A stretch of DNA of 56,863 bases from a bacterium (GCA_043803945.1 JAZDJN010000025.1:1-56863), one strand, 5' to 3'; positions 37 through 37,600 are shown, counted from the stretch's first letter. Translations and numbers: made by a program. The notes: generated from the sequence alone by a model not told the origin.

Positions 37-108
37 AATGTCGAATGCGGAATTTATCCCGAGCCCGTCGAGGGATGAAAAGCTGATTCAGAGATAGATC
101 AGCTTTTT
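37..108 (+). repeat. L-type unit L0 (heptamers, REP-like hairpin, terminator)
   Basis: aatgtcgaatgcggaat, then hairpin atcccgag..tcgagggat, then aaaagctgat..atcagcttttt; same order as copies at 188-288, 15639-15696, 27487-27612, 36807-36948, 37428-37520. Confidence 0.75.
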
Positions 109-120
109 GCTGTAAAAGGG

Positions 121-178
121 TAACACGAGTTCTCCGCCACAAAGACGGCGGATCTGTGAGAATCTCGTTGGGGGTACT
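121..178 (+). pseudogene. tRNA-Glu 3' remnant (att-site like) with 27-nt hairpin insert in the T-loop
   Basis: TAAC-ACGAG-TTC[133-159]GAAT-CTCGT-TGGGGGTA = variable loop, T arm, acceptor 3' strand; identical to the longer copy at 27405-27484 apart from the insert. Confidence 0.8.
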
Positions 179-256
179 ATAAAATTACAGAATGTTAAAA
201 TGTGGGAATGAGGGAATTCACTCCGAGCGCAGTCGAGGGGTAAAGATTTCCGCTTG

Positions 257-288
257 AAAAAGCTGGTCCAAAACAGGATCAGCTTTTT
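257..288 (+). terminator. Intrinsic terminator of L1 (likely bidirectional)
   Basis: aaaaagctggtcc-aaaaca-ggatcagcttttt stem-loop with A and T tails. Confidence 0.7.
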
Positions 289-310
289 GCATTATGAAGG
301 AAACCCTGCA

Positions 311-420
311 ACTGAATTCACAGGATCCACGGAATCGAGCTGTATAAAATTCACCTACCGTGGTAGACAATTTGGTGTACACTTCTTAGAACCTCTCTTA
401 CAGCAACATATTCAATCACT
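311..420 (+). repeat. 110-bp direct repeat (L1 distal part, with arm-type boxes)
   Basis: Matches 15720-15829 with 2 mismatches; contains gtggtagaca (360) and ttggtgtaca (372). Confidence 0.92.
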
Positions 421-442
421 TATTCGATAGGTAATATCTAAG

Positions 443-997
443 TTGCAGTCCAAATTTTACCTCACCAAAAGAACCAACGGCATCTATTACAGCCTCATTA
501 AATCACCTGAGAAGAAGAATCAATGGAGGACTATGAAGTGCAGGAAGAAACCAGACGCATACCGTTTCCTGAAAGAGTTTGAAGAAACAAACAGTAAAAT
601 AAAGAGTCTCCAGATACCTATATTCTCCGAGTTCCTGAAGATGTATGAGGCTATCCAATCCTTAGTAATCCGAAAATCTACTCTCGAACCGTATAAAACG
701 CTGGCAGCGAAATTCATACTATTGAACCCCGATAAGCCGTTAAACACATATACCTCCCTTGAATTTGAACAGTCACGAGCCAAAGCCATAGCCGATGGTA
801 TGTCTGTAACAAGGATGAATATGTATACACGAGCTGTCAAGACACTGTTCAACTTTGCCTATAAACAGAATATCATCAGCCGCAATCCACTTGAAGAACA
901 ATTCAATTTGCTATCGACATATATAGGGTTGAGCAATTGTGAATGCAACGATCTGAAAGTTGTTCGTCAAGAAAACGAGATATTGTGTGTGTCGTGA
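443..997 (+). pseudogene. Truncated tyrosine integrase (arm-binding and SAM-like N-terminal domains only)
   Basis: KSTLEPY..F....PLNTYT...S.TRMNMYTRAVKTLFNFAYKQNIISRNP is the typical integrase N-terminal core-binding pattern; sequence degenerates after RNP and no catalytic R-H-R-Y domain follows. Confidence 0.8.
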
Positions 998-1317
998 TCG
1001 TAGAACTTGATACGACGAAGATGGCTGGGATAGTCGTTGTGTGTGTTGACTCCTGTAAGAACCAATGCATGATCACATCGCAAGCCTATTGCATTATCGA
1101 ACGGATGTGAGTAAACACCTGAACATTTCCGGTTGTTATCTTAAGAAATGATGTTCCATGAGTCTGTGATCGTTGTTGCTGTAAGTTACAGCAGGTTCGA
1201 CTGGCGATTGCTTGCCATTAATGAATCTGCATCTTAACTTAGCAAAGATCCAGGAATATTGAAATGTACCCCGGGATCGGGAAGAATCCAATATAGTGGC
1301 ATGAAAGGAGCCGGCTT

Positions 1318-3402
1318 GTGTCACCATACTCCTTGCCCGCACTGCTCGCCCTCGCGATTAACGTCTCACTGATTGTCATCGTCCTCCTTGACAACTTCCG
1401 AAGTTATCCGCACAGACTATTCGCCCTCCTCATTGCGTGCTTCGCACTCTGGGATATTGCGGATATTCTTGTGGTCAGTAGCATGATGGCGGAGCAGGCA
1501 TCGCTTGGTGGCGGTATAATTGTTACCGCATTGGTATTTGCGACAACATTTTTTCTGAACATTTCATTTCTCTTCCCTCGACCTGTTCAGTCAAGACAGA
1601 ACCAAAGTCTGATACAAATTCTCTCGTTCACCATCGCACTCACGTTCAGCGTTCTGTCGGCCCTCGGGCTTATTCATCCACTATCCCTCCAGTATTTTGA
1701 AGAGCGCCACTTTTATTGCTATGCCCTCAGCCACGCGGATACAATTTCTGGCGCCCTTCTCTTTCTCATCGTCATCACGTGTCTTACGCTTGGCATAAGG
1801 AATTTGCTCAGTCAACTACGCTCAGCGCGGTTTCATCGGGAGCGCAGGCAGATTCAGTTCTTTCTCTATGGAACAATCATGTTCGGCCTGCTTGTTGCTG
1901 TGCTCGATCTTCTGCACGATTTTGAGATGATTCACTTCTATTTTTCGAGGGCTCTCTTCATTGTGCTGGGTATTTCCTTTGCCTACGTAGTACTTGCCAA
2001 CCGGTTGCTTGTTGTTCACAAGATACTGAAGCACGGTGTCGTGTACTCTATAGTTGCTGGTTTGATGTTTGGCTTCTACATCCTCGTTGTTCAAGGTCTC
2101 GTGAAAGCAATGAAGCAGTTTTTCGGGATAGGATCGGTATCATTTGAAATCATCGCGATTCTCTTGTTTTCCTTCTTACTTTGGCCTCTCGCCAATGCTG
2201 TGCAGATGTTACTGGACCATCTTTTCTACCAGCATATTTTCCATTACCGGGACAGATTCATTGTCTTTACACGCGAGATGTCTAATCTCACAGGCATCAC
2301 AGATCTTGCGAAATCTGTCGATACGTTTTTGAAGCATGCGCTTCGGGTATCAACAACACAGATGCTGGTGCATGATGTACGGAGTAACAGTCTTCGGGGT
2401 GTTCTTAATCCATCTGTAACAATTCCGGTCGATGGTGTGTCTACCTCTTTCATTGCAAAGGAACACCGCGTGTTTGAAATTGGAGAGCTCCTGGAACACT
2501 GCTCGGATGACGAGCGGTCACTCCTGCAAGCATATGACGGTGGTGTTCTCCTTGGGCTGTTTGCGAAAAAGGGGATAAACGGTTTGCTTCTCATCGGATC
2601 CGCAGTCAATCACAGGGCGTATTCGCTTGACGAGATGCAGTTTCTCACGGTTTTTACCAATGAGGTGTCGATGGCCGTCGAACGAAACATGGTGTTGCAG
2701 CAGGTGAAAGAGGAGGAGGCGAAGAGCCTGCAAATGGAAAAGCTTGCAGCGATGGGGCGCTTGACAGCTGGTATCGCACACGAATTTCGCAACCCGCTCA
2801 GCATTATCAAAACATCTGCTCAGACTATTCTTAGAAATGTAGACGAACGGGAAGTGGTGCAAGAGACGGGGAGGTATATCGTCAGTGAGACAGAACGCCT
2901 TGATTCGATTGTCGGGACGTTTCTCCAGTTTGCCAAACCCCACACACCGGTCTGGGAATCGACTGAGCTTTCAGGGTTGTTTGATCGCGTGATTCGGTCA
3001 CTCGAGCAAAAGGCCGCTTTGACCAACGTGATCATCAGGAGCAGAGTGGAGCATGACGTCCCTGAACTTGTGACTTCGAGCCGGCACGTCGAACAAGCTC
3101 TGATAAACCTGGGTCTGAATGCACTTGAGTCGATGTCCGCGGGAGGTGTGCTGACGTTCTCCGCGATGAAAAAGGATGTGAAGAGCGTCCTCATTTCCGT
3201 TCAGGATACAGGCCCGGGAATCCCGCAAGAGTTCCAGGCGAGAATCTTCGATCCTTTCTTCACGACGAAACCGACAGGCACAGGGTTAGGCCTGGCTATC
3301 GTCTATATGATGGTCCAAAACATCAAAGGCTCCATTTCATTCACGTCCGGAAGTGCCGGCACACTATTTTCAATTGAACTTCCCATCGATGGTGCAGCAT
3401 GA
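1318..3402 (+). CDS. Membrane sensor histidine kinase (multi-TM N-terminus, GAF-like, HisKA, HATPase)
   Basis: AGIAHEFRNPL H-box, NLGLNA N-box, DTGPGI, FDPFFTTK, GTGLGL; many hydrophobic segments. Confidence 0.93.
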   Translation: MSPYSLPALLALAINVSLIVIVLLDNFRSYPHRLFALLIACFALWDIADILVVSSMMAEQASLGGGIIVTALVFATTFFLNISFLFPRPVQSRQNQSLIQILSFTIALTFSVLSALGLIHPLSLQYFEERHFYCYALSHADTISGALLFLIVITCLTLGIRNLLSQLRSARFHRERRQIQFFLYGTIMFGLLVAVLDLLHDFEMIHFYFSRALFIVLGISFAYVVLANRLLVVHKILKHGVVYSIVAGLMFGFYILVVQGLVKAMKQFFGIGSVSFEIIAILLFSFLLWPLANAVQMLLDHLFYQHIFHYRDRFIVFTREMSNLTGITDLAKSVDTFLKHALRVSTTQMLVHDVRSNSLRGVLNPSVTIPVDGVSTSFIAKEHRVFEIGELLEHCSDDERSLLQAYDGGVLLGLFAKKGINGLLLIGSAVNHRAYSLDEMQFLTVFTNEVSMAVERNMVLQQVKEEEAKSLQMEKLAAMGRLTAGIAHEFRNPLSIIKTSAQTILRNVDEREVVQETGRYIVSETERLDSIVGTFLQFAKPHTPVWESTELSGLFDRVIRSLEQKAALTNVIIRSRVEHDVPELVTSSRHVEQALINLGLNALESMSAGGVLTFSAMKKDVKSVLISVQDTGPGIPQEFQARIFDPFFTTKPTGTGLGLAIVYMMVQNIKGSISFTSGSAGTLFSIELPIDGAA

Positions 3403-4814
3403 CAGATGAAATTAACCTCCTTATCGTTGACGATGAAGAGAAAACGCGTAGGATTCTCGAACTCAACCTTAACAAGCGCTACCGCCTTCATCTGGCAGAA
3501 TCAGGCAGAGCGGCGCTCGAAATAATTCTTTCGAGGCCAATTGATATCGTTCTTACCGATCTCAAGATGCCGGATATTGATGGGCGGACAGTCCTTCGCG
3601 AAGTGAAGGAAAAAGGACACCCGATACCTATTATCGTCATGACCGCTTACGGGACAATTGAGAATGCAGTAGCGGTAATACAAGAGGGAGCTTTTGACTA
3701 CGTTGTTAAGCCTGTTGATCTTGATCAACTCGATCTTGTGCTCAATCGAGCAGTCGGACACGTCCTGTTGCTGCGAGAAAACGAGCACCTGCGCTCAAAG
3801 CTGATGATGGCAGAAAATGTGCCCGACATCGTGACAGCCAGCCATTCCATGCAACAGATCGTCAAACTCATTCAACAGATTGCACCGACGGATTTCACCG
3901 TGCTCATTGAAGGGGAGACGGGAACGGGGAAAGAACTTGTTGCACGCGCCATCCATGCGCTGAGTCCTCGAGTATCGAAACCTCTTGTTGCTGTGAACTG
4001 TGGCGCTATACCTCGCGAGCTGCTGGAAAGTGAGTTCTTCGGGAGCGAACGTGGTGCATTCACCGGAGCTGTAGGTCGGCGTGCCGGGAAGTTCGAGCAA
4101 GCAAACGGAGGGACGCTCTTCTTGGATGAGATAGGCGAGTTTCCCCTGGACCTGCAGGTGAAATTGCTTCGTGCGCTTGAGGAGCGGGCGATCACGAGGG
4201 TCGGGGGAATTGAAAGGCTGGCACTTGACTTCCGTATCATTGCTGCGACGAACCGTCGGCTGGGAGATGAAGTTGCTGCAGGACGTTTTCGTTCTGATCT
4301 GTACTATCGGTTGAACGTTATTGTTTGTTCGCTGCCGCCACTCAGGGAACGAGTTGAGGATACTCCGCTGCTGGCCCAGCACTTCCTTCTGAAGCATCAA
4401 CAGCGTGCCGGCAAGAATCTCAAAGGCATCGACCAGCGGGCGCTCGCGTACTTGAAATCGTATCACTGGCCCGGTAATATTCGTGAATTGGAAAATGTGA
4501 TGATGCGGTCGATCGTCTCGGCGACAACAGATTTTGTCACAATTGACGACCTCCCCCCCGACATGAGTTTGAAACCGTCTACGCAAGGAGGGAAACTCCC
4601 CTCCACGTTCGAGGAGTTCAAACAAATGAAGAACCAATTTAAGGATGAATACCTGAAGCAGCTTGAACGAGCATTCTTGCTCGAACATCTCCGACGGAAT
4701 AACTGGAACATCTCCCAGACCGCTCGCATAGTGGGAATGGACCGACGCCTTCTCCAAAATATGATGAAAGAGCAGGGGCTGATGAAGCCGACTGACGAAG
4801 CTGTTCCCTCCTAG
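3399..4814 (+). CDS. Sigma54-dependent response regulator (NtrC family)
   Basis: Receiver (VDDE, DLKMP), GETGTGKE Walker A, GAFTGA, LFLDEIGE, WPGNIRELEN, C-terminal Fis HTH; overlaps kinase stop (ATGA). Confidence 0.96.
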   Translation: MTDEINLLIVDDEEKTRRILELNLNKRYRLHLAESGRAALEIILSRPIDIVLTDLKMPDIDGRTVLREVKEKGHPIPIIVMTAYGTIENAVAVIQEGAFDYVVKPVDLDQLDLVLNRAVGHVLLLRENEHLRSKLMMAENVPDIVTASHSMQQIVKLIQQIAPTDFTVLIEGETGTGKELVARAIHALSPRVSKPLVAVNCGAIPRELLESEFFGSERGAFTGAVGRRAGKFEQANGGTLFLDEIGEFPLDLQVKLLRALEERAITRVGGIERLALDFRIIAATNRRLGDEVAAGRFRSDLYYRLNVIVCSLPPLRERVEDTPLLAQHFLLKHQQRAGKNLKGIDQRALAYLKSYHWPGNIRELENVMMRSIVSATTDFVTIDDLPPDMSLKPSTQGGKLPSTFEEFKQMKNQFKDEYLKQLERAFLLEHLRRNNWNISQTARIVGMDRRLLQNMMKEQGLMKPTDEAVPS

Positions 4815-4821
4815 ATCCTTC

Positions 4822-4906
4822 TGCGAAGAATTCTTCGCAGCCTTGTCCCCTTGATTTCCTCGAATTCTTAGAGATTCCTACATCTGGGTGCGAATCGTTG
4901 TTCGCA
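4822..4906. promoter_or_regulatory. Two TGCGAA-N6-TTCGCA palindromes, putative enhancer sites
   Basis: 4822-4839 and 4889-4906, upstream of a -24/-12 element and next to a sigma54 activator gene. Confidence 0.7.
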
Positions 4907-4967
4907 CCTTGTTGCCTCAGCATGAAGCTCCTTGGGTAATTCTTGAAGGAATTCGGCACGTCACGGC

Positions 4968-4983
4968 TGGCACGCATGTTGGA
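4968..4983 (+). promoter_or_regulatory. Putative sigma54 -24/-12 promoter
   Basis: TGGCAC-GCATG-TTGGA versus consensus TGGCAC-N5-TTGC (one mismatch). Confidence 0.6.
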
Positions 4984-5030
4984 GGACAGTCATGCACAGG
5001 CACAACAGGTCGATCATTATTACTTATCTC

Positions 5031-5138
5031 ATGTCAACAACACTCATCATCGTCGGGTTGATTTCAGCGGCACTTATCGCTGCTACCATTTGGTCAGGAA
5101 TCGTGTCTAGACGAGATTCACAAAAGGATCGCCGATGA
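5031..5138 (+). CDS. Possible small single-pass membrane protein (35 aa; 48 aa if started at 4992)
   Basis: MSTTLIIVGLISAALIAATIWSGIVSRRDSQKDRR: hydrophobic helix plus basic tail; below ORF track cutoff. Confidence 0.4.
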   Translation: MSTTLIIVGLISAALIAATIWSGIVSRRDSQKDRR

Positions 5139-5196
5139 GAAAGAAGATCTGCAGTTGATGTCACATATATCCACTTCTTTTACAGGAGACGTATCT

Positions 5197-5826
5197 ATGA
5201 ATACCAACAAAATCGCGAAGACCTTTTCTCTTCTCTTCGCACTTACGGCTGCCCTTCTTCTTAGCACAAGCAGCGCCGAAGCACACTGTGACACGATGGA
5301 TGGCCCGGTTGTAAAAAGTGCGCAAAAGGCGCTTGAGACCGGCAATATAAACCTCGTTTTGATTTGGGTTCAGAAGAAGGACGAGGCGGATATTAAGAAA
5401 GCGTTTGAAAGGACCCTTGCAGTACGAAAGCTGAGTCCTGAAGCAAAACAGATGGCAGATATGTACTTCTTTGAGACTCTCGTTCGCATCCACCGCGCAG
5501 GCGAAGGTGCGCCGTACACAGGGCTCAAACCTGCCGGTTCAGAAGCAGAGCCGGGCATTGAGATGGCGGACAAAGCTGTCGAGAAAGAATCGGGAGCGGA
5601 TCTGGTAAAAGACCTCAATGAAATAATGCACAAGAGCTTGCACGCCCTGTTTATGGAAGTGAAGGAGAAAAAGAACTTCAAGAAGGATGACGTCCAGGCT
5701 GGAAGAGAGTACGTGAAGGCATACGTGACGTTCATTCACTACGTCGAGAAGTTGTACCAGGTCGCACAAAAGCCCGCTGGCGAGCACGGTGAGGTGACAA
5801 AGGACGCAGGTGGGCATCAGCACTGA
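5197..5826 (+). CDS. Secreted DUF6448-family protein
   Basis: AGGAG RBS, signal peptide ending AEA, then HCDTMDGPVV, FFETLVRIHRAGEGAPYTGLKPAG, GREYVKAYVTFIHY; His-rich tail. Confidence 0.85.
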   Translation: MNTNKIAKTFSLLFALTAALLLSTSSAEAHCDTMDGPVVKSAQKALETGNINLVLIWVQKKDEADIKKAFERTLAVRKLSPEAKQMADMYFFETLVRIHRAGEGAPYTGLKPAGSEAEPGIEMADKAVEKESGADLVKDLNEIMHKSLHALFMEVKEKKNFKKDDVQAGREYVKAYVTFIHYVEKLYQVAQKPAGEHGEVTKDAGGHQH

Positions 5827-6050
5827 TTTGCAGTGCCATGATCGAGTCGAGCCCAGGTGTCCAGTCCTTGGGCTCATCGATTTCCTCGACGTTAATCACT
5901 GTGAGTCTGTCAATGGAAGAAGAAGTCACTTACCCGGCAGCGATCTTGGTGGGGAATACATCAAGCTAAAATCGAAGAACTAGTCGGAGTGTCTCCTCAG
6001 ACCAAAGCCAGGAGACAACCCGAGCGTGAGCATATCAAAGGAGTCAAGTC

Positions 6051-6344
6051 ATGTTTATCAATACCATTGAGTTTCCACCGATCAAAGCGGGGAAGGAAGA
6101 AGAATTTAGACAGTGGTTTCTTCGGTCCAACCAGGTGTGCAACAAATTTGCGGGCCTGATCTCGCGCCGGCTGCTGAAATCAACCAAAGAAGCTGGAAAG
6201 TACGTCACATTGGTTGAGCATGAGAGCAAAGAGACATTCATGGCAATGCATACAAGCCCGGAGCGTCAAGCTGCGTGGGAAGAACTGAAGCCACTCCTCG
6301 AAGGATCCCTCAAGCCCAGCTTCTTCGAAACGGTGGGGTTGTGA
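6051..6344 (+). CDS. Antibiotic biosynthesis monooxygenase (ABM) family protein
   Basis: GKEEEF..W....GLISRRLL..YVTLVEHESKETF.AMHTSPE; AAGGAG RBS. Confidence 0.8.
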   Translation: MFINTIEFPPIKAGKEEEFRQWFLRSNQVCNKFAGLISRRLLKSTKEAGKYVTLVEHESKETFMAMHTSPERQAAWEELKPLLEGSLKPSFFETVGL

Positions 6345-6372
6345 GCGGTAGAACTCATCATCGGAGATACTT

Positions 6373-6510
6373 ATGGAGCACAATCTGAACGGAGCAACAA
6401 TGGAAGGCAACATTGAGACGCGAATCAGGATTCTGGAGGAGGCAAAGATCCAGTTTCTGACCTATGGGCTGACAAAAGTCACAATGGATGAGATCGCGAC
6501 GGTATCTTGA
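6373..6510 (+). pseudogene. TetR-family regulator, N-terminal fragment
   Basis: Manual translation ..ETRIRILEEAKIQFLTYGLTKVTMDEIATVS* = first half of TetR HTH, then directly HlyD sequence. Confidence 0.8.
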
Positions 6511-7213
6511 CCGAAACCGGTCGCAAACGCTGATGCGGCTGAAGCACAATATCAGTTGATGGTTAAGGGACCGCGTGAAGAGGATATTCTTCAGGCCGAA
6601 GCGAATTATAGGAGCGCACAGCAGGACATGAACCGCGCAGATGAGCTGTTCAAAGCCAAGAGCATAACGAAGAAGCAACTCGAGGACATGCAAACGCGAT
6701 TCGTGGTAACCCAGCAGAGCTTCGAAAAGCTGAAACGTGGTTCCCGCCCCGAAGAAATCAGGGCAGCCCGTGCTCGGCGCGACCAGGCAGCTGCGCAGGT
6801 AGAGGCAATCCGCAAGAAGATCAGCGATTCGTTCGTGGTCGCATCGATGAGCGGCGTCGTCACGGAGAAGGGGCTAGAGCAAGGAGACGTTGTGATGCCC
6901 AATGGTTCGGTCTTCCGCATCTCACGGTTGGACAAGGTGCATCTCATGATTTATGTTTCCGAAGTAGAACTGGCTCGAGCCAAGTTAGGCCAGCCGGCCG
7001 ACGTGTCTATCGACGCATACCCGACCAAAGCCTTCCCGGGAACAGTCGTATATATCTCGGATATCGCTGAGTTTACTCCAAAGAATGTGCAGACGAAGGA
7101 TGATCGGACAAAGCTCGTGTTCAGGGTCAAAATTTAAGTGACTAATGCCGACGGATCGTTAAAGCCTGGCATGCCCGCGGATGCGACGATCCGAACCTCT
7201 TCCGGCTCGTGAA
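6511..7213 (+). pseudogene. HlyD/YbhG-like membrane fusion protein, 5'-deleted with internal stop
   Basis: GPREEDI, AEFTPKNVQTKDDRTKLVFRVKI; TAA at 7135-7137 is followed in frame by [16 protein letters not shown]; no N-terminal anchor. Confidence 0.85.
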
Positions 7214-7225
7214 GGTGAGGAACCC

Positions 7226-7860
7226 ATGGTACCAGCGATAGCGATCAAGGGATTGACAAAAACGTTCGACGGTATTACCGCCGTCGACGGCCTCGATCTG
7301 ATCATTGAACAGGGCGAGATGTTCGGCATCGTCGGACCGGACGGGGCAGGCAAAACGACGACGTTCCGGATGCTGACGGGAATCCTGATACCGACATCCG
7401 GCTCGGCAACAATCCTCGGTCACGACCTTGTAAAGGAGTCGGAAGAAATCAAGAAAGAGATTGGCTATCTCTCGCAGCGGTTCAGTTTGTACGGCGACCT
7501 GACTGTGGACGAGAACATCGAGTTCTTTGCCGAGATCAATGAAGTGTTCGACTACAAGGAGCGCCGCGAAAACCTGCTCGAATTCACCAGGCTGACACCG
7601 TTCCGCGACCGACTTGCAGACCAACTCTCCGGCGGCATGAAGCAGAAACTCGCGCTTGCGTGCACGCTCATCCATCCGTTAAAGATGTTCAAGCGTTTGG
7701 TGACAGGTTGAACGTTGTCGTCGAAAACAGCAAGCGTGACTTCCCGCCTGTTGAGCGGACGCTCATCGAGGCGAATATCCGTATTGCTGAATGGCGTATC
7801 ATCACGCCATCGCTGGAAAATATCTTTATCTCAATGATGTCTCATGAACAGAATGCATAA
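7226..7860 (+). pseudogene. ABC ATPase with internal deletion and frameshift
   Basis: GPDGAGKTT and LSGGMKQK present, stops before Walker B (TLIHP); C-terminal PSLENIFI continues in another frame. Confidence 0.85.
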
Positions 7861-9189
7861 CACGGAGTTCACCATGCTGAAAAGGCTTCTTCTCGTTACA
7901 CTTCTCCCTGCGCTTGTGCTCGCACAGGAAAAACGCGTGCTCACGATCGACGATGCAGTTCGACTCGGACTGCAGAACAGCAAACTGCTGCACATCTCAG
8001 AAGCGAAAACGATGGCGGCAGAAGCGAAGTTGAGGGAAGCGAACGCAGCCAGGTTGCCTTCACTGAAACTACAAGCAGGTTACACCCGGCTGAGCGATGT
8101 TGAGCTGTTGCTGTGAAATTGCCGTCATCGCCAACACCCATCGTGATTTCACCAACGGTGTTGGATCAATACACGTCGAAAGTGTCGTTACAGCAGCCTC
8201 TCTTCTCGGGATTCAGGCTTGAGAAGTCGGCCGCAGCCGCGGATTATTCGGCTCGGGCTTCGCATTTTGACTTTGAAAGAGACAGAGTTGATATGGTGTA
8301 CAACGTGAGGGCTGCGTACTGGGGCGTTTACAAGGCGACGGAAGTGAGGCGCGTGGTTGAGGAGAGCGTGGAGCAAACCAAGGCGCACATGAGCGATGTG
8401 AACAATATGATGGCGCAAGGGCTGGTGACAAAAAACGAAGTATTGAAGGTAGAAGTCCAGTACTCCAACGTTCAGCTTGCTCAGATTGAAGCAGCCAACA
8501 ACGTGAAGAACGCAATGATGTCGCTGAACAGCCTCAATGGATTGCCGCTTGATACTGAAGTTCGAATAGCTTCGGCGATAAAGGCTCAGACCGAGGAATC
8601 GCAGTCTGCTGACGCGTTCGCACAACTAGCACTAGTTTCGCGTGCGGACGTGAAGGCCGCGGAGATGAGAACCAACGCAGCGGATGCTTCTGTTGTCGCT
8701 ACCAATGGAGGGTGGTGGCCACAGCTCAATTTGTTCAGCAACCTCTACTACTCACGCCCCAATCAGCGCATCCTGCCGACCAGGGATGAGTTCAAGGATA
8801 CGTGGGATGTTGGTGTGAGCCTCTCGTGGGATATTTGGAACTGGGGAACGACAAAACACCAAAGCGACCAGGCTGAAGCAATACACAAACAGACACGTTA
8901 TGCGCTTGAGCAGCTGAAGGATAACGTCTCACTTGAAGTGAATCAGAGCTATCTCGCGCGGGCCCAGTCGAAAGAAAAGATCTCTGTAGCTACCAAGGGT
9001 GTTCGCCAAGCCGAAGAGAACTACCGTATGACAAAGGACAAATTTACAAACGGAACCGCAACGAACACCGATCTGCTCGATGCTGAGATTGTCCTGCTTC
9101 AATCAAAACTGAATTACACAATATCGCTCGTGGATTCTGAGCTTGCACAGGCAAAGCTGGCGAGGGCGCTTGGCAAGGAGAGCATGTGA
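7844..9189 (+). pseudogene. TolC-family outer membrane efflux protein, frameshifted near 8110
   Basis: Signal peptide and ARLPSLKL in 7844-8116; QQPLFSG, WPQL, G..TNTDLLDAE in 8113-9189. Confidence 0.85.
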
Positions 9190-29288: not shown

Positions 29289-29295
29289 TAAAACC

Positions 29296-29603: not shown

Positions 29604-30227
29604 ATGATATTCCATAAGGTTTTGGATGTACTCCTCTCGACGTGGTCTCACATTGCAGTCTTGCGCGTGTTGCAGGATTCTGTGCATGGGTTGACTGGGA
29701 GAGAAATCGCCCGCCAATCCGGAATGAACCATCGCTCGTGTCTCAGGGCGCTGACCACGCTGGAGGAACTGTCAATAGTACGCCGAATCCGTGGTGGGAG
29801 AGATCATCTCTTTAGTATTAACCGGGAACATCTCTTGATTGCTGAAGGTATTCTCCCATTGCTGGGGCTCGAACGAAAATTCTTCAAAGAATTCACGGAT
29901 GTTTTGAAGCATCTGTGTGGCAACCAGGCAGAGACCATTATTCTCTTTGGAAGCGTTGCTCGCAGGGAAGAGACTGCAGCAAGTGATGTCGATGTCTGTT
30001 TTCTCATTAACAAAGCAGCGGATAAAGAAAAGATTCAGGACATTCTACAGAAAAATTCAAATGCAATGGTGAAGCGCTTTGGAGCGCGTATGTCTCCCAT
30101 CTTTTTTACAAGAAAAGAGTTTTCGAAAAAGGTTGAGCAGAAAGTACCGCTTGTGCAACTAATCCTGAGCGAAGGAATTATTATCAAAGGGAAACAGATC
30201 CGGAGGTCTGTGAATGCCACGTCATAA
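29604..30227 (+). CDS. wHTH plus minimal nucleotidyltransferase (MNT antitoxin)
   Basis: LTGREIARQSG HTH; LFGSVARREETAASDVD. Confidence 0.88.
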   Translation: MIFHKVLDVLLSTWSHIAVLRVLQDSVHGLTGREIARQSGMNHRSCLRALTTLEELSIVRRIRGGRDHLFSINREHLLIAEGILPLLGLERKFFKEFTDVLKHLCGNQAETIILFGSVARREETAASDVDVCFLINKAADKEKIQDILQKNSNAMVKRFGARMSPIFFTRKEFSKKVEQKVPLVQLILSEGIIIKGKQIRRSVNATS

Positions 30228-30452
30228 TCTTCGTACGAAGGAACACCGGTCAAAAACACGGTTCAACCAACTTGAAGATTTAATTGCTCCAGGTGAAGAA
30301 CAACGTAAAGCGATGCACCAATTACGTCGCATTATTGATCATAAAAAAAGGTATCCTATACAGGACAACTGTACACCCGGAAAGATGTTGATGAGTTATG
30401 GAAACTCATAGAGCGATTTCGTCAATGGGCAATTCAATTGCTGGGGACCTAA
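30214..30452 (+). pseudogene. HEPN-like partner, shortened and frameshifted
   Basis: Overlaps MNT end; LRRIIDHK then, after a shift in the A-run near 30345, KVSYTGQLYTRKDVDELWKLIERFRQWAIQLLGT*. Confidence 0.65.
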
Positions 30453-30703
30453 CAATGAACAATACTCTTCTATAGAAAAATATCCGCTTTGAATCAGTTT
30501 GTTTGTTGAGATTAAAAAAGGAAAAGAAAATAATCTTAAACTCTTGACTTCTGCTTTACGTTCTAGATATACTTGCATCACTAATTCACGTGTTAGCGAT
30601 AGCACGTGTGCTGCTAACAATCTGCTAACAGATCGAGCCCTCTGCAGGGTGTTTTTGAGGAAAAATGTTTTGTTTTTGAATCGGTTTCCTACCAAAGACG
30701 ATT

Positions 30704-30866
30704 TTCAATTTCCATCGGAATTCGATGGTTTCTCAAAGGAGCTGATCAGACAATGGGATCAGCTTTTTGCGTTTATGGGGATGGTTAAGTGGTATGAACA
30801 GAATCCATGGATTGAAGCTGTAGACCATTGACGGTGCTTGGTAGACAGCAATTTCTACGAGTCCTT
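30704..30866 (+). repeat. L-type unit L4 (partial, no tRNA remnant)
   Basis: Direct repeat of 27548-27719 including terminator 30740-30768 and ttggtagaca. Confidence 0.85.
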
Positions 30867-31027
30867 GTATACTGCTTCTCACTCGTATGTTCTGACATTC
30901 TCAAAGATTGTCTTTCGACCATCCTTTCGACTCTCCGTTGTTTCGTATTGACACTAGTTTCAAACATTCCTACATTCGTGCAGTCGGTTTAAAATAAACC
31001 TCCTTTACCTAAACCCTGGAGGACACC

Positions 31028-31654
31028 ATGATACTTCCGCACAAATTATTCGCCCTTCTCGTCTATCTTCTTATTTTATCACTTTTTGTTTGGTCATTCA
31101 GTTTTTCGCAAGTCCGAGATGAAACGGCTCCAAAAGAATCTGGTTCTCCATTGGTGTTTGTAGGTGTATTACTTGCTGTTCTTCTTGTTGTTGTTCTAAT
31201 CATGCCAGGGGATTCACCAGATCAAGATCAAAAAGTCCAGGACATACCAGCCAAGGCTGATGTTCCTCCAATACGCAATATGCAGTTAAAAGTTGATTTT
31301 AAAATGGAGTTCACTTATACCCCAAAACAAGAAGATTCAGTTCGAGTCTTAAGTATTCCGTATTTATTAGAAAGATTAAATTCTATAGGTCAATCGGATG
31401 GCAATAGTTTCACTATCCCGGATGGTGAAGCGACAAATTTTATTCTAACATATACTATTAACCAGGTGGGCCAAATTGGGAATGATAGATATACAGGCAG
31501 TATGACATTGAGCGGATGGGGTTGGGGTACAATTTGTACTATTTCAAGCGGTGAGTACCCTTTCACTAATCCCTTTCATATGCTTAACAAGTTAACAGAC
31601 CAAGCGTATAGTTGGATTCACAATGGCTGGCGCGAAACCCAGACGAATCGATAA
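31028..31654 (+). CDS. Hypothetical membrane-anchored protein
   Basis: GGAGG RBS, signal-like segment plus a second TM helix, soluble C-terminus; no family recognised. Confidence 0.65.
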   Translation: MILPHKLFALLVYLLILSLFVWSFSFSQVRDETAPKESGSPLVFVGVLLAVLLVVVLIMPGDSPDQDQKVQDIPAKADVPPIRNMQLKVDFKMEFTYTPKQEDSVRVLSIPYLLERLNSIGQSDGNSFTIPDGEATNFILTYTINQVGQIGNDRYTGSMTLSGWGWGTICTISSGEYPFTNPFHMLNKLTDQAYSWIHNGWRETQTNR

Positions 31655-31889
31655 ATAAATTGGTCGAAATAAACTTTCACTTCTTTGAAATGCTCGCCAA
31701 CAGCGTTTGATTCTATACCTGAAAAACTTCTTTTCAATTCTCTTGAAATGTAGCTCGGTCACAATCACATAGATATTTTTCATTTCCCAAAAATATCTAT
31801 TATACAGAAACGAGGATAACCAGCTTAGTACCTTTCTGATATAGGCTGCGCTGACAATCAAGACTACCCTGCTATTTCGTTGCCAAACA

Positions 31890-32195
31890 TTCGCCAATCC
31901 TGTCTAAAGTTAACTTGCTGGTTGACTCTCACGAGGATACCAATACCTTCCTTGGTAGACAAACCATCGAGAAAGGTAATTGAGTAGGTTGCACTCAAAA
32001 TTCTATCTCAGTAAACGCCGTAACGGTGTCTATTACATCCTCATTAAAACTTCTGACAGTAAAAACCGATTGAAATCCACCAAGTGCTGTAAGAAATCAG
32101 ATGCTTACTGTTTCCTGAAAGAGTATGAAGAAACATACAGTAAACTAAAGAACTTCCAGATACCCGCCTTCTCCGAGTTTCTAAATGTCTATTAG
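31890..32195 (+). mobile_element. R-type unit R5 with ~70-codon integrase stub
   Basis: TTGACT 31922; LHSKFYLSKRRNGVYYILIK..KSDAYCFLKEYEE..QIPAFSEFL aligns to ORF 443. Confidence 0.9.
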
Positions 32196-32453
32196 TACCT
32201 TCAGTTTTGTTGACTGTACACATAAGTATAGAATACGATGCTCGAACCTGCTTGATAGAATCGGATGATCGGAGTTACTTGATTAGGAGGTCAAGGAAAG
32301 AACATGAGGACTTGCTAAAGGCAGAGGGATAGTCAAGATTGACACTAGCAGTAATCATCGCTACATTTCATCACCTGAAAGAAGTGAACCGGGGCTTCCT
32401 GACCTTGCCCCGAGAACAAACCCAACATTGCGGGTGTAACCTGAGAAAACGGT

Positions 32454-34064
32454 ATGCTACAGTCCTTAAAACTCTATGGGAGATCAAAACAACTTCTCAT
32501 CATTCTTGTCGTTCTGGTCCTTCTCCCTCTTCTATTATACTCCGCGTTTCAAATCAATACGCTGTCAGAGGGAGAGTCGCTCATCCATGAGATCTATAAC
32601 CGTCAACTTGATGCAGTCCTTTTCTCGATTAATCAGTATGCCTGGGATAATGCTGCTCTCTGGCGGGGTGAGATAGAGCAAACCTTTCGCGTTCACCGAA
32701 TATCTGATGTTCAGAAATTGGACTCTCTTTCGAGGGAGTTTTTTCTGCGGAATGCACCACTCCGCAGTATCGTCTTTCTGGATACCAGTTTTACATTGCG
32801 TTCCTTTATCCATACTCCGCGGGAATCGCTCTCCGCTGTCGATCGCCAACACAGAGAATTGCTCCTCCGGACGATGTTGAGCCAGCAACGCGCACGGGTG
32901 GAGAAACTTGTCGATTATCAAAAAATTGGCTACAGAAAGCTTGAGACAGTTATTGTCGACAGTTCTCAGAATCATGCGGACGTTGCGGTTTTCTTTCTCA
33001 GCGAACAATCCGGGGGAACGTCGTTGCTGACCTGTTTTATCTTCAATGTCGAAGCATTCATCACCGAAGCATTGGCATCGAAACTGAATGAAATCGCCGG
33101 GGATGAATTTTCTCTCTCCATCTATTCTCCAACAACTGGCCGACAGATTTTTACAATAGGGGATATTAATGTCCATGAAGTCAAAGAGTCCAAAGCCTTC
33201 TGGCTGTTCCCTTCGTATCATCTGGCGATCCAGCTCCGGGAACAGACGCTTGAAGGATTAGTCAAAGACCGATCACGCCGCAGTCTGCTGCTCATTCTGG
33301 GGGTCGATCTCCTGGTTCTCCTTGGTGCAGGAATTGTGTTCAGAACGGTAAAGAAAGAGATGGTACTTGCCCAGCTAAAGACGGACTTTGTCTCGAATGT
33401 CTCTCATGAATTACGAACCCCTCTCTCGCTCATTCGGATGTACAGCGAAACGCTGCAGATGAACCGTGTTCGTTCGGACGATGAACGACAGGAGTTCTAC
33501 GACACCCTCGTTCATGAATCGGAACGGCTCACCCGGCTCATTAACTCGATCCTCGACTTCTCACGTATGGAATCGGGGAACCATCAATACCGTTTTGAAA
33601 CCATCAATTTAAATGAACTTGTTCAGCACGTGATCGAACAGCTGAAGGTACAGTGGGAACAGGAGGGTGTTTCCTATGAGTGGCGACCCTGTGAAGGGCT
33701 CCGGGAGTTCTCTGCAGACCCGGAAGCACTCACCAGTGTGATTGTCAACCTGCTCGATAATGCGGTAAAATTCCGTGCCGAACAGAAGTGGGTACGAATC
33801 AGTACGGCACAGCATGCCGACACGATCCTTCTTGAAGTGGAAGATCATGGTATTGGCATTGCGCCTGAGCATCAGAAAAAAATATTCCAGAAATTTTACC
33901 GTGTCTCGAGTGAATTGGTACATCGGGTGAAGGGAAGCGGACTGGGATTGACACTTGTGCACCACATTGTTGAAGCACACCACGGAACAATTACCCTGCA
34001 CAGCGTTCCGGGGAAGGGGAGTACATTTCAACTCTCGTTTCCTGTTTCCACACCATTGTCCTGA
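32454..34064 (+). CDS. Sensor histidine kinase (2 TM, periplasmic domain)
   Basis: VSHELRTPL, NLLDNAVKF, DHGIGI, GSGLGL. Confidence 0.94.
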   Translation: MLQSLKLYGRSKQLLIILVVLVLLPLLLYSAFQINTLSEGESLIHEIYNRQLDAVLFSINQYAWDNAALWRGEIEQTFRVHRISDVQKLDSLSREFFLRNAPLRSIVFLDTSFTLRSFIHTPRESLSAVDRQHRELLLRTMLSQQRARVEKLVDYQKIGYRKLETVIVDSSQNHADVAVFFLSEQSGGTSLLTCFIFNVEAFITEALASKLNEIAGDEFSLSIYSPTTGRQIFTIGDINVHEVKESKAFWLFPSYHLAIQLREQTLEGLVKDRSRRSLLLILGVDLLVLLGAGIVFRTVKKEMVLAQLKTDFVSNVSHELRTPLSLIRMYSETLQMNRVRSDDERQEFYDTLVHESERLTRLINSILDFSRMESGNHQYRFETINLNELVQHVIEQLKVQWEQEGVSYEWRPCEGLREFSADPEALTSVIVNLLDNAVKFRAEQKWVRISTAQHADTILLEVEDHGIGIAPEHQKKIFQKFYRVSSELVHRVKGSGLGLTLVHHIVEAHHGTITLHSVPGKGSTFQLSFPVSTPLS

Positions 34065-34075
34065 GAGCAACCGCA

Positions 34076-34762
34076 ATGAAAAAAATACTGGTCATAGAAG
34101 ATGAACCCGCAATGCGACGCGGCCTAAAGCATAATCTTGAACTCGAAGGCTACGAGGTTCGCACCATCGCAGACGGTGAGGCGGGGCTTCGTTCGATTGT
34201 CTCCCAGCCGTTCGATCTTGCGATCCTCGATATTATGCTTCCCCGGATGTCGGGATTTGATCTGTGTAAAGCGGCACGCGCGCAGGGTGTGAAAATCCCC
34301 ATTCTGATGCTGACGGCAAAAGGTGAGGAGGTCGATAAAATCATCGGCCTTGAATTAGGGGCGGATGATTATGTGATTAAACCATTCAGTTTGCGTGAAC
34401 TGCTCGCCCGTGTCAAGGCGCTGATCCGGCGATCGGAAGGGACGTTCAGCGCAGATCCGGAACGGGTCTCTCTTGGCTCTGTGGAGATCAATTTCCGGGA
34501 GTATACAGCGCAGCGTGATGGCATTCCTCTGACGATGACACCAAAAGAAATTGAAGTACTCAGGTACCTCTGGCTGAACCAGAACAAAACAATAAGCCGG
34601 GATGAGCTGTTAACCAAGGTCTGGGGATATGATCAATCCATGAACTCACGCACTGTCGATAATTTCATTGTACGGCTGCGTCACAAACTTGAACATGATC
34701 CATCGCATCCCCGATATATTCTCACCATTCATGGCGTAGGATACAAATTCGTTGTCCCCTGA
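34076..34762 (+). CDS. OmpR/PhoB-family response regulator
   Basis: IEDE, LDIMLP, GADDYVIKPF, SRTVDNFIVRLR, GVGYKF. Confidence 0.95.
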   Translation: MKKILVIEDEPAMRRGLKHNLELEGYEVRTIADGEAGLRSIVSQPFDLAILDIMLPRMSGFDLCKAARAQGVKIPILMLTAKGEEVDKIIGLELGADDYVIKPFSLRELLARVKALIRRSEGTFSADPERVSLGSVEINFREYTAQRDGIPLTMTPKEIEVLRYLWLNQNKTISRDELLTKVWGYDQSMNSRTVDNFIVRLRHKLEHDPSHPRYILTIHGVGYKFVVP

Positions 34763-34889
34763 CGCGGCGTTGACATGACATTCTTTTACAATGTTGGTAC
34801 AGGGAGATGACATCTTCCTGCCCGGAGCATCGTATCTTTGGTTGGAACGATTAATCAATTGATGTTCAACATTGTAAGATGAGGATGCC

Positions 34890-35348
34890 ATGAAACGATA
34901 TGCGATGTTCCTGTTAGGAATCACAGTTGTGGCAACATTGAATGTCCACAGTCAGAATTTTGCCAAGAATGTAATACCCGGTGGAAAGACCTCTGTTCAG
35001 CATCACAATACCTATTCACCGGCGTATTTGCAGAAGGCGAAGAAGCAGTATCTCCAGTGTCTGCGCGAACGCCACGAAGCGATTGTCGAAGCGGCATTGG
35101 CACATGTTGCCTATCTGCGCATTGTAGCCCCGGATGAAAATGTTACAGAGCTCCAGAAACAGATCGCAATACTTGCACGGGATGGTATTACTGAAAACAT
35201 TAAGATCAAAGCGGCCATTGTACAGATCATCTTTACTAATCCGCTCGCGTATGAAAACCTGCTTGAATCGAAAGGCTTGAACAGCAATCAGTTCTTTTCT
35301 GCCTCATGTCAACGAATCATGGCGACGTACTTCGCGGGTCGGGAATAA
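34890..35348 (+). CDS. Secreted hypothetical protein
   Basis: GAGG RBS, signal peptide, helical body. Confidence 0.65.
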   Translation: MKRYAMFLLGITVVATLNVHSQNFAKNVIPGGKTSVQHHNTYSPAYLQKAKKQYLQCLRERHEAIVEAALAHVAYLRIVAPDENVTELQKQIAILARDGITENIKIKAAIVQIIFTNPLAYENLLESKGLNSNQFFSASCQRIMATYFAGRE

Positions 35349-35435
35349 CAACGCATTGATGAATCTCTTGTGCCCTTCTCGGGAAAATACGATGCTCACG
35401 AGAATGATTGTTCGAGAATGAAGGATAGGGATGTC

Positions 35436-36512
35436 ATGAAATACTCTAAACGATGCTGCATCGTGATGGTTCTTGGTCTGATGATCGCCTCCACTTCGGG
35501 ATTGCATGCCCAGGGGTGGAAAGCCTTGCTTGATCTGAGCGGTACCTGGAGGTTCGAGCTCGGTGATAGTGTGAGCTGGAGCAATCCTGCTTATAATGAT
35601 ATTCGCTGGAGCCGTATCGAAGTTCCTTCTCCCTGGGAAGAACAGGGATTTCAGAACTATAATGGATATGCCTGGTACCGGAAACATTTTCGTGTGAACC
35701 GCGACCTTGTGTCTGGCAGGCTGGTTTATTTGTTGGTGGGATATATTGACGATGTCAGTGAAATATACCTCAATGGTCGATTGATTGGGTATGCCGGACA
35801 ATTTCCTCCCAGGTTTACCACAGCCTATACGCGTGCACAGTCATACGTGCTGCCGTTGGAGTTCCTGCACTTTGACCGGGAAAATGTTCTTGCCGTACGG
35901 GTGTATGATTTACGATCGGTCGGCGGTATTACCAGAGGATTGATTGGATTATTTGAGCCCCGGAACTATCCCTCTCCCGATCTCGATCTCAGTGGTCCAT
36001 GGAAGTTTTCGACCGGTGACAACAGAAAGTGGAGGGATGAAGGATTTGAGGATTCAGATTGGGAAGAACTCCGGGTTCCTGGTTTTTGGGATACACAGGG
36101 ATATCGGCATTACGATGGTTATGCCTGGTATAGAGTCAGGTTTAAGCTTCCTGAACAGCTCAGACATCAATCGCTCACAATGCTCGCGGGGAGGATCGAT
36201 GACTTCGATGAGGTGTACGTTAATGGAACCCTCATTGGCAGAACGGGGGATATGAGTTACGGTGTTGATCCATCCCGAGTACGGGAGGATTGGAAAAAGC
36301 TCCGCGCGTATGAGATACCGAGAAATCTTCTCCACGCCGAGGGAGAAAATGTCATAGCCATTCGGGTACTTGATGCAATTCTCCATGGTGGCATTTATGA
36401 CGGACCGGTGGGCCTTGTTCGCACCAGCAGATACAAGCAATGGAACAAAGAGAATGCTCCGCAGTCCAAATTTTGGGATTGGTTCAAAGATATTTTCTTA
36501 GAACCGATGTAA
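35436..36512 (+). CDS. Secreted tandem galactose-binding jelly-roll (GH2 sugar-binding-like) protein
   Basis: Two repeats of DLSGxWxF..VP..W..Y.GYAWYR..IDD....NG..ENV.A.RV.D; no catalytic barrel. Confidence 0.85.
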   Translation: MKYSKRCCIVMVLGLMIASTSGLHAQGWKALLDLSGTWRFELGDSVSWSNPAYNDIRWSRIEVPSPWEEQGFQNYNGYAWYRKHFRVNRDLVSGRLVYLLVGYIDDVSEIYLNGRLIGYAGQFPPRFTTAYTRAQSYVLPLEFLHFDRENVLAVRVYDLRSVGGITRGLIGLFEPRNYPSPDLDLSGPWKFSTGDNRKWRDEGFEDSDWEELRVPGFWDTQGYRHYDGYAWYRVRFKLPEQLRHQSLTMLAGRIDDFDEVYVNGTLIGRTGDMSYGVDPSRVREDWKKLRAYEIPRNLLHAEGENVIAIRVLDAILHGGIYDGPVGLVRTSRYKQWNKENAPQSKFWDWFKDIFLEPM

Positions 36513-36561
36513 TTATTCTCAATAGAAATTTTCTGATATCCATATCACCCCAGCTAACCTT

Positions 36562-36596
36562 GTAAGAGGACTCCTTTCTGCTGGGAGAGTCTTTTT
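36562..36596 (+). terminator. Probable intrinsic terminator
   Basis: gactcct..ggagagtc stem followed by ttttt. Confidence 0.45.
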
Positions 36597-36806
36597 CCTT
36601 TCGCACTGATACTATCAGTAGTTCTACTGATGCTAAAATCTGTAGTTGTCCGGTTTGAAATTTATGTGAGACCTTACCAGTTTCCCATATAGTAGAGGTA
36701 CCTGTTGATAGTGAAACAACTCTGCAAGGAGACTGCAATGAAAACAATTCATTCCCCCAGAGCTTTCTCCCTTCCCTTGGTACACATAACGGTATGGAGT
36801 TATCAG

Positions 36807-36990
36807 GAATTCGAAATTCGGAATGTTGAATTCGGAATTCCCCCGCTTGCCCCGACTTGTCTCGATGTATTGTATCGGGATGTTTTTTATCGGGGAGATT
36901 AATCGAGGGATAATGTGGAGAAGCTGATCTATAACAGCATCACCTTTCTGAGTTATAAGGGATACCTTTGCACTGAATTCTCAGGATTCA
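36807..36990 (+). repeat. Degenerate L-type unit L5 with nested palindromes
   Basis: GAATTC-GAAATTCG-GAATGTT-GAATTCG-GAAT, aagctgatc, cactgaattctcagga. Confidence 0.7.
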
Positions 36991-37302
36991 AGGTCCAAGC
37001 AGAGCGCAGGTAATTTGCCAGACGGAACAGCCTTTATGGTAAATAATCCTTCCGGAAACCAGGATCGGATTCCGCTTGCAATAACATTAAGCAAGGATGG
37101 ATTTCTGTTTGATAAAGCGTACCTAGTGCGCAGTGGAGGAGAAGATCTTCAACACTTACGGTATAAAGGAAAATATAAAAGGGCAGGTTATAGTTATCCG
37201 AAAAGTGTCCTCTGGGGTGATTATCTCTATATCTCGTATGCAACCAATAAAGAGGATGTTGAATTAACGAGAATCCCGATTGATAGTTTGTTGTATCAGT
37301 AG
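36985..37302 (+). pseudogene. C-terminal fragment of a sialidase-like BNR propeller
   Basis: DSRSKQSAGNLPDG..RIPLAITLSKDG..F..YSYP..YATNKEDV; fused straight onto L5, no start. Confidence 0.7.
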
Positions 37303-37360
37303 GTGTGAAGAGCCATTCAACCCGATTGAGTCACAGTAAAGAACCCAATGAGAGAGTTTT

Positions 37361-37417
37361 CTCCCCCTTTCATACCGGATTATGTTAGGAGAAAAGGGGG
37401 AGATTAAAGAGGGGGTT
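37361..37417. repeat. REP-like palindrome
   Basis: ctccccctt..aagggggag followed by agaggggg. Confidence 0.55.
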
Positions 37418-37427
37418 CAAAAATACA

Positions 37428-37600
37428 GAATGGCGAATGTTGAATGCGGAATACATCCCGCTTGCTCCGGCTGTTTATGTCGGGGAGTGAAAACGCTGGT
37501 CTAAAGTTAGATCAGCTTTTCCCGACACTGAATTCTCAGAATCCATCGTATCAAACTGTGTAATACCTTCCGGTTTGTTAATCAGTTTGGGTGACACTTC
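37428..37600 (+). repeat. Degenerate L-type unit L6
   Basis: GAATGGC-GAATGTT-GAATGCG-GAAT, terminator 37490-37520, cactgaattctcagaatcca, boxes at 37575 and 37587. Confidence 0.75.

Follow-up and report, generated by a model that had tools for sequence, protein, structure and literature searches.

The stretch of DNA analysed here, hereafter called the window, is the entire 56,863-nt contig C25 (JAZDJN010000025.1), known from the draft assembly of a 5.54-Mb genome of the phylum Ignavibacteriota (G000, GCA_043803945.1), which comprises 118 contigs and has a completeness given as 100%. It contains, downstream of the gene for tRNA-Glu(TTC), what is very probably a tandem array of about 8–10 decayed remnants of one family of small integrative islands. 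An initial annotation of this DNA had described the locus as an integron-like row of two kinds of co-oriented repeats, namely, L units, carrying pieces of the tRNA, and R units, carrying an operator and usually the 5' end of a tyrosine integrase gene. We have kept these names.

All seven L units and all six R units were found where that annotation had placed them. The L repeats, at 37, 121, 15613/15618, 27400/27405, 30704, 36807 and 37428, all lie on the plus strand, and the R units are oriented in the same way. BLAST comparison of the window with itself links the L units with E-values of 3e-56 for L1–L2 (89% over 168 nt), 2e-33 for L3–L4, 8e-7 for L1–L5 and, weakly, 0.005 for L5–L6, and the R units with values of 6e-34 for R1–R6, 4e-36 for R3–R6 and 4e-68 for R4–R5. 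The units and the tRNA pieces are as follows.

1–118, plus strand: 3' flank of the intact tRNA-Glu(TTC) (L0), with a GAATG-type repeat word (37–57), a small GC hairpin (58–78) and a terminator-like hairpin (77–108)
119–177, plus strand: tRNA-Glu 3' copy, tRNA positions 44–74, with a 28-nt GC hairpin in the T loop (133–160)
178–442, plus strand: L1, GAATG-type repeats, GC hairpin, terminator-like hairpin (257–289) and native integrase upstream region (297–442), the latter 91% identical to that of the relative L028
443–997, plus strand: R1, integrase 5' stub, homologous to 340-aa integrases over codons 1–152 (443–898), where the homology stops; original ATG now AAG
15613–15845, plus strand: L2, tRNA-Glu end, GAATG repeats, terminator-like hairpin and integrase upstream region, stopping a few nt short of the integrase start
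17011–17038, plus strand: R2, operator palindrome alone (exact 18-mer at 17020)
21727–21911, plus strand: R3, degenerate operator, promoter region and stub of about 27 codons (ATG 21825)
26409–26626, plus strand: R4, operator (26418), promoter region and 14-codon stub (ATG 26532); integrase homology stops at 26573
27400–27484, plus strand: tRNA-Glu 3' fragment from the anticodon loop, positions 33–74, with a 37-nt GC hairpin in the T loop
27485–27720, plus strand: L3, GAATG repeats, terminator-like hairpin and promoter region
29287–29488, plus strand: R5, operator (29296), promoter region and 14-codon stub (ATG 29395)
30704–30866, plus strand: L4, terminator-like hairpin and promoter region, no tRNA piece
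31890–32195, plus strand: R6, operator, promoter region and stub of about 68 codons; original ATG now AGG
36788–36993, plus strand: L5, GAATG repeats, genome-wide GC repeat (36844–36895), degenerate hairpin and start of the promoter region
37417–37600, plus strand: L6, GAATG repeats, GC hairpin, terminator-like hairpin and promoter region, similarity weak

With regard to the R units, the operator palindrome is present at 17020 (18/18), 26418, 29296 and 31890, with a degenerate copy at 21727. The five stubs all read SKFYL(T/S)KxxNG, confirming the common integrase N-terminus that had been proposed for five copies. R1 matches seven PF00589 proteins of 340 aa at 63–77% identity, plus one of 280 aa, the R6 stub is 67% identical to the integrase P0002, and R3 is 84% identical to the corresponding stretch of the metagenome contig L023. 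Every integrase of the locus is now truncated. A search with PF00589 returned no match in C25 versus 10 in the genome, and a full-length relative used in tblastn matched N-terminal parts only in the window; as the initial annotation had stated, no R copy reaches the catalytic domain. The full-length integrase that this annotation proposed to look for elsewhere was not found either: the genome contains no member of the family, the closest other integrases being 25–29% identical. In-frame fusion of the stubs to cargo genes was also considered, and rejected from the coordinates of the open reading frames (ORFs).

The view that L and R repeats are confined to this locus holds in part. R units occur nowhere else in the genome, the R core CCTTCCTTGGTAGACAAAC having four occurrences in C25 and a single one elsewhere, with three mismatches, when searched at up to three mismatches; likewise, the L terminator word has exactly four genomic occurrences, all in C25. 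In contrast, the GAATG-type word at 37 (AATGTCGAATGCGGAAT) belongs to a dispersed repeat family, with 56 genome matches at up to three mismatches, and the small GC hairpins of the L units are also present elsewhere. A simple promoter and terminator scan of 26300–32500 gave results at chance level (18 found versus 13.5 expected, and 5 versus 5.1); it missed the L hairpins, which yet fold well on their own (z of -2.8 to -5.3). Two further repeats touch these units. The R operator palindrome has a 17/18 match outside the locus, at C26:30463, and a regulator of the host or of another element may use this site. The GC-rich repeat of about 53 nt inserted in L5 (36844–36895) has copies on C81, C99 and C101 that are 80–92% identical to it.

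The target gene was expected near the remnants, and it was found. ARAGORN detected no tRNA in the window, and the single tRNA-Glu(TTC) of the genome is located at C12 c[124-197]. Once reverse-complemented, the start of C12 reads tRNA-His, a PF05635 gene, tRNA-Glu and a further 17 nt, after which come 108 nt that match positions 1–108 of the window exactly. Contig-end overlaps are frequent in this assembly (39 overlaps, or 78 oriented links, with a commonest length of 141 nt), and the 108-nt link between C12 and C25 is unique for both contig ends. From this overlap, we take the intact tRNA-Glu(TTC) to lie just upstream of the window, ending 17 nt before base 1. The tRNA 3' remnants described at the L units proved unequal. 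The fragment at 27400–27484, both retained parts of which are identical to the tRNA, does start in the anticodon loop and is the sole remnant retaining the crossover region, its segment 27405–27429 being identical at 25/25 nt to that of the tRNA. However, the piece at 119–177 begins in the variable loop and has its T loop split, and that at 15613–15629 amounts to the last 16–17 nt of the tRNA.

In the neighbourhood of this target, the PF05635 gene (23S rRNA intervening-sequence, four-helix-bundle family, or IVP gene; C12:345-719, minus strand) lies between tRNA-His and tRNA-Glu with short degenerate repeats on its flanks. It also fills this spacer in L002, L023, L028, L033, L034 and L039; in L003/L024, G016, L035, L036 and L037 the spacer lacks it and measures about 40–80 nt.

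Intact members of the integrase family reside at the same tRNA in other genomes. Forty relatives were searched, and those compared included metagenome-assembled genomes of Ignavibacteriota and Bacteroidota. In L002, tRNA-His, the IVP gene and tRNA-Glu are followed, after about 130 nt, by an intact integrase. In L001 and G016, tRNA-Glu precedes an island of 28 kb whose integrase is a different one (33% identical), then a tRNA-Glu fragment covering positions 32–71, then the family integrase; L003/L024 follow the same two-island plan with a first island of 7.5 kb. The tRNA fragments beside these intact integrases start at position 32 (L001) or 33 (L003/L024), and the window remnant at 27400–27484 starts at position 33. 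These relatives support the proposal that one integrase family integrated repeatedly at tRNA-Glu(TTC), with crossover in the anticodon loop. Worn copies were also found: L028 carries an integrase stub of about 98 codons after tRNA-Glu, the integrases of L004, L026 and L027 are frameshifted and end near residue 210–232, and L003 holds one integrase 3' scrap.

The most informative relative with regard to architecture is L023, whose tRNA-Glu is 100% identical to that of the window and whose integrase lies 3.4 kb after it. The order is tRNA-Glu, an L-like region, an 894-aa type IX secretion system (T9SS) gene, the operator palindrome, the R upstream region (85–88% identical to R3, R4 and R6), the intact integrase, a YunG-like gene, a DUF3768 gene (about 0.6 kb after the integrase) and an insertion sequence. 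Since L023 retains a complete left end, L and R can be recognised as the two conserved segments in the left end of the element itself, separated by a slot for one variable gene. The same plan recurs in the window as L2–b–R2, L3–e–R5 and L4–g–R6 (letters refer to the cargo blocks listed below), and in R1, L2, L028 and L002 the promoter region adjoins the integrase with no slot gene. The regular architecture that had seemed unusual thus mostly reflects this native left end.

We propose the following history. Each island would have carried a 340-aa tyrosine integrase recombining the attP site of the island with the anticodon loop of tRNA-Glu(TTC). As attP would hold the 3' 40 nt of the tRNA, integration would restore the gene, and each arrival would push the earlier island, together with the displaced 3' piece of the tRNA, further downstream. 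The native left end would consist of the tRNA 3' part, terminator hairpin and promoter region (L), an optional variable gene, the operator and promoter (R), and the integrase, followed by small backbone genes, including DUF3768, and then the cargo. Deletions that began in the 5' region of each integrase would later have eliminated the rest of the gene and the backbone; most crossover sites would have been deleted as well. We infer that a deletion clearing a dispensable integrase–backbone block and sparing the gene upstream can leave a 5' stub only; the survival of 5' stubs alone is most simply explained by the integrase being the first gene of this dispensable block, with a gene or the tRNA flank upstream of it. 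Given the general decay, the loss of most att cores and the lack of a family integrase in the genome, the stack would now be frozen and immobile. The order of these events, and any role of selection in them, are likewise put forward as the probable course.

Comparison of the stubs bears on the number of arrivals. The ratio of nonsynonymous to synonymous substitution rates (dN/dS) is 0.25 for R1–R6 (68 codons), 0.23 for R6–R3 (27 codons) and 0.28 for R1–R3 (27 codons), and in its first 84 nt R3 matches R6 and L028 at 85.7% identity each and L023 at 84.5%. As the stubs thus diverged under purifying selection, most of them are likely to represent separate acquisitions, although the stretches compared are short and the support for independent arrivals is therefore moderate.

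The genes carried between the units, and the end of the array, are listed below.

1318–15031, plus strand: cargo a, histidine kinase, sigma-54 regulator, DUF6448, ABM, wrecked HlyD/ABC/OEP efflux operon, ABC-2 permease, DUF3943, COX2-like and COX1
16152–16982, plus strand: cargo b, 276-aa protein, no family match
17211–21576, minus strand: cargo c, response regulator, histidine kinase and permease
21934–26310, plus strand: cargo d, PadR, 456-aa permease-prefix protein, glyoxalase-type protein, SnoaL and DUF5694
28047–29288, plus strand: cargo e, in slot L3–R5, BNR-repeat protein with T9SS sorting domain
29604–30227, plus strand: cargo f, helix-turn-helix protein and nucleotidyltransferase (weak MntA-like match)
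31028–31654, plus strand: cargo g, in slot L4–R6, 208-aa protein, no family match
32454–36512, plus strand: cargo h, histidine kinase, response regulator, 152-aa protein and GH2-like sugar-binding protein
37015–37302, plus strand: C-terminal fragment of a BNR_2 (sialidase-like) gene
37666–40041, plus strand: slot gene after L6, glucuronyl-esterase-like T9SS protein
40041–40155, plus strand: 3' remnant of the DUF3768 backbone gene, its last 115 nt, directly after the slot gene

The cargo blocks contain from one to about 12 genes with their own regulators, and slot gene b (276 aa) has no relationship to slot gene g (208 aa). T9SS sorting domains occur in the window and, together with the named relatives, assign the genome to the Ignavibacteriota/Bacteroidota group. 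The G+C content of the modules ranges from 0.37 to 0.57 versus 0.465 genome-wide, no cargo block is present twice in the self-comparison, and Rfam models at gathering thresholds gave no match in the window. The array does not end at 37600, as first annotated, but reaches at least the DUF3768 remnant at 40155; after L6, the R unit, the integrase and the 5' part of DUF3768 are deleted. That the cargo had stayed in place is partly true: blocks persist, but the efflux operon at 6553–9899 (HlyD, two ABC ATPases, OEP and ABC-2 permease) has at least four genes broken in comparison with the intact paralogue at C54:23274-29865, a gene fragment remains at 37015–37302, and 26627–27399 contains no long ORF. 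In the operon, the HlyD gene is missing its first 118 codons, one ABC ATPase ends at residue 158/310, the OEP gene is frameshifted, and the second ATPase is joined to the permease tail.

Two observations concern the surroundings of the cargo. A promoter-like 30-nt repeat (TTGACA-type box, 17 nt, TACATT) stands at 16060, 30947 and 32338, upstream of three unrelated cargo genes, and its 11-nt core has four genome occurrences. After the array come a WD40-caspase gene, a caspase-PEGA gene and the gene for a 2912-aa T9SS protein (40533–45822, 47905–56643), the last with internal repeats (49841–50124 versus 53993–54276, 86%).

Several observations weigh against the history of independent arrivals and decays outlined above. 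The sole link between C12 and C25 is the contig-end overlap. The anticodon-loop junction is visible in one remnant only, so that most island borders are deduced from L units. R4 and R5 are 95.7% identical over 161 nt, which includes a common deletion junction and the 52–53 nt beyond it (53 nt after the break in R4 and 52 nt in R5, where the two then diverge); because they share this junction, they are not independent decays, and the truncated unit was duplicated or moved. The near-identity of L1 with L2 (98% over 110 nt) and of L3 with L4 (96% over 71 nt) points to some internal copying or recombination. GC hairpins sit in the T loop of two of the three tRNA remnants, and since they are unexpected in the displaced half of a working tRNA, a second process appears to act here. 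Finally, none of the 40 relatives belongs to the genus of the window, and none of the genes downstream of tRNA-Glu in seven relatives maps to C25. From the R4/R5, L1/L2 and L3/L4 pairs, some duplication, recombination or trans-mobilisation took place within the stack.

The same near-identical pairs, R4/R5 with its shared break and L1/L2 and L3/L4, could be taken to mean that the stack grew mostly in situ from one or two founder islands, through unequal crossing-over or segmental duplication, with few separate integrations. We consider this unlikely, as the self-comparison contains no duplicated cargo block, the G+C content of the modules is heterogeneous, the other stub pairs differ by 14–29% in DNA with a dN/dS of about 0.25 that denotes divergence while coding, and R3 resembles its neighbours no more closely than it does the integrases of other metagenomes. 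Alternatively, the locus could be a working cassette system, integron-like or cis-mobilizable, in which R and L serve as sites of recombination or expression, with an integrase acting in trans to shuffle or capture the modules. Its units are indeed co-oriented, a single variable gene occupies the L–R slot in four window units (L2–R2, L3–R5, L4–R6 and after L6) and in L023, the truncated R4/R5 unit occurs twice with different neighbours, and the 25-nt segment shared by the tRNA and the remnant at 27400 could in principle allow a trans integrase to excise a 27-kb block. Yet no family integrase exists anywhere in an assembly given as complete, the crossover region is lost in all remnants but one, the slot borders are not sharp, the integrase family scores far under the integron-integrase cut-offs and the cargo is decaying, which makes a functioning cassette system very improbable. 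As for an assembly artefact, conceivable in a draft of 118 contigs whose ends overlap in many places, the repeats do not exceed about 200 nt in length and have diverged (73–98%), their near-identical stretches of 110 nt and 71 nt are shorter than the commonest 141-nt overlap, and independent assemblies (L023, L028, L003/L024 and G016) present the same architecture; we regard this origin as having hardly any likelihood. Repeated integration followed by decay is thus the reading that we favour.

The hairpins in the T loop lead to a separate observation. In the window copies at 119–177 and 27400–27484, the GC hairpin is inserted after the GTTC of the T loop, and that at 133–160 is a member of a genome-wide family. 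For 8 of the 47 tRNA genes of G000 (Arg-tcg, Arg-acg, Asn, Val-cac, Gly-ccc, Leu-taa, Met and Asp), the 3' end of the gene is repeated on the same contig no more than 450 nt downstream, each time in split form; adding Glu-ttc and Gln-ttg, joined across contig ends, brings the figure to 10/47. The split copies comprise the last ~30 nt of the tRNA, 10–400 nt downstream of the matching gene; they were located on C27, C29/C51, C91, C95, C98, C102, C60, C109 and C16 of G000 and in L039–L059. The Met and Asn units are tandemly arranged, the periods being 99 and 108 nt. The GC double hairpins of the split copies are mutually related, and related also to a dispersed family (38 matches at up to two mismatches). 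The junction pattern, GTTC followed directly by TGAGCCNNAGGCTCAT, was detected in 13 of 61 genomes of the taxonomic family (12/33 genera) with no match for a reversed control, and 13 of the 18 distinct junction loci fetched have a same-strand tRNA gene in the 600 nt upstream of them. In G003, the unit after tRNA-Glu has a hairpin homologous to 27429–27466, and its T stem is that of the G000-type tRNA, not that of the G003 tRNA itself. Small GIY-YIG ORFs (about 90 aa) touch a tRNA gene or a split unit at 6 of their 13 loci. Those noted directly beside such features are listed here.

C109:3264-3527, C99:20842-21099, C51:39491-39703, C98:16821-17024, C98:6286-6495 and C103:44939 / C22:45: small GIY-YIG ORFs beside tRNA genes or split copies

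At tRNA-Asp, the GIY-YIG ORF runs into the split copy. One such ORF overlaps the 5' end of the intact tRNA-Pro(ggg), and other copies are flanked by different palindromic repeats.

We tentatively suggest, as a possibility that is more doubtful than not, that the split-T-loop copies are not decay products but an undescribed class of very small elements located just downstream of tRNA genes; word searches of the open-access literature retrieved no description of such units. Each unit may bring or duplicate the last ~30 nt of the tRNA, from the variable loop to the 3' end, with a hairpin after GTTC, some being coupled to the 90-aa GIY-YIG gene. A T-loop-preferring hairpin element, a miniature integrative element and a homing-type GIY-YIG element are possible origins. 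On this assumption, the tRNA-Glu locus would have been shaped by two tRNA-targeting systems, and the truncated R4/R5 unit may have moved in trans. Whatever the origin of the units, the piece at 119–177 need not be an island junction, and the hairpin at 27400–27484 may come from fusion with a neighbouring unit. Being widespread in the taxonomic family, these split copies may be a more interesting lead than the stack itself.

With repeated integration and decay as the favoured origin, the locus provides a dense example of a tRNA hot spot turning mobile islands into fixed chromosomal genes, the fixed cargo including two-component systems, oxidase subunits and secreted T9SS proteins, in a phylum whose mobile elements have been little studied. 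It also sets out an integrase family whose target is precise, namely the anticodon loop of tRNA-Glu(TTC), together with a recognisable left end that includes a one-gene variable slot.

The initial annotation knew of no named system for such a locus and called it integron-like. Its likeness to integrons is limited to a co-oriented row of acquired genes beside integrase-related sequence. Unlike integrons, it has no intact integrase in the contig, its cargo consists of multi-gene blocks with their own regulators, and its target is a tRNA. The L023 integrase scores 98.8 bits against the integron-integrase model TIGR02249, below its cut-off of 265. No attC-like site was seen at the module borders, which show tRNA pieces, terminator-like hairpins and promoter regions only, no dedicated attC model having been run. 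The locus instead matches the deletion and tandem accretion of site-specific islands already set out in parts of two publications (PMC5704250, PMC3146451), and for this reason it is not integron-like.

The portion of PMC5704250 devoted to this model, which it credits to Pavlovic et al. 2004, describes three steps for ICESt1-type elements of streptococci, namely, site-specific integration, decay to a cis-mobilizable element (CIME), and integration of a next element beside it. As in that portion, integration here targeted the 3' part of one gene repeatedly, integration genes were lost, and later arrivals stacked beside earlier ones. The present case differs in its Ignavibacteriota host, its tRNA-Glu anticodon-loop target, the absence of any conjugation genes seen, and its number of remnants, about 8–10 versus 2–3. 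As regards CIMEs, the integrases are lost and the crossover segment is kept only in the tRNA and at 27405–27429, so that no more than the stretch between the tRNA and 27484 could count as one; since the majority of att cores are gone, most modules have ceased to be strict cis-mobilizable elements.

In the relevant part of PMC3146451, tandem ssrA islands of Dehalococcoides are reported, some without an integration module and possibly fixed. They resemble the present stack in being tandem islands downstream of one small-RNA gene, with 3'-end direct repeats and accumulating adaptive cargo. They differ, according to that part, in using a serine recombinase, a T-loop site in the tmRNA and a clean 20-bp repeat at every border, whereas the window involves a tyrosine recombinase, eroded repeats and integrases that are all truncated. 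Islander, as far as the section of PMC4383910 concerned states, counted 125 tandems of at least two and four tandems of at least three among 3919 islands, an integrase being required in each member. Islands of this type share with the locus an intact tRNA gene, here reached through the C12 overlap, a co-oriented displaced 3' fragment downstream, here at 27400–27484 with shorter pieces at 119–177 and 15613–15629, and the anticodon-loop class of crossover. In place of a tyrosine integrase in each island, the window has stubs of 14–152 codons. As the stack holds no intact integrase, the method, in the form given in that section, would not call it, and tools with such a requirement will miss stacks of this kind. 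The stack is a large, unusually worn case of known tandem island accretion.

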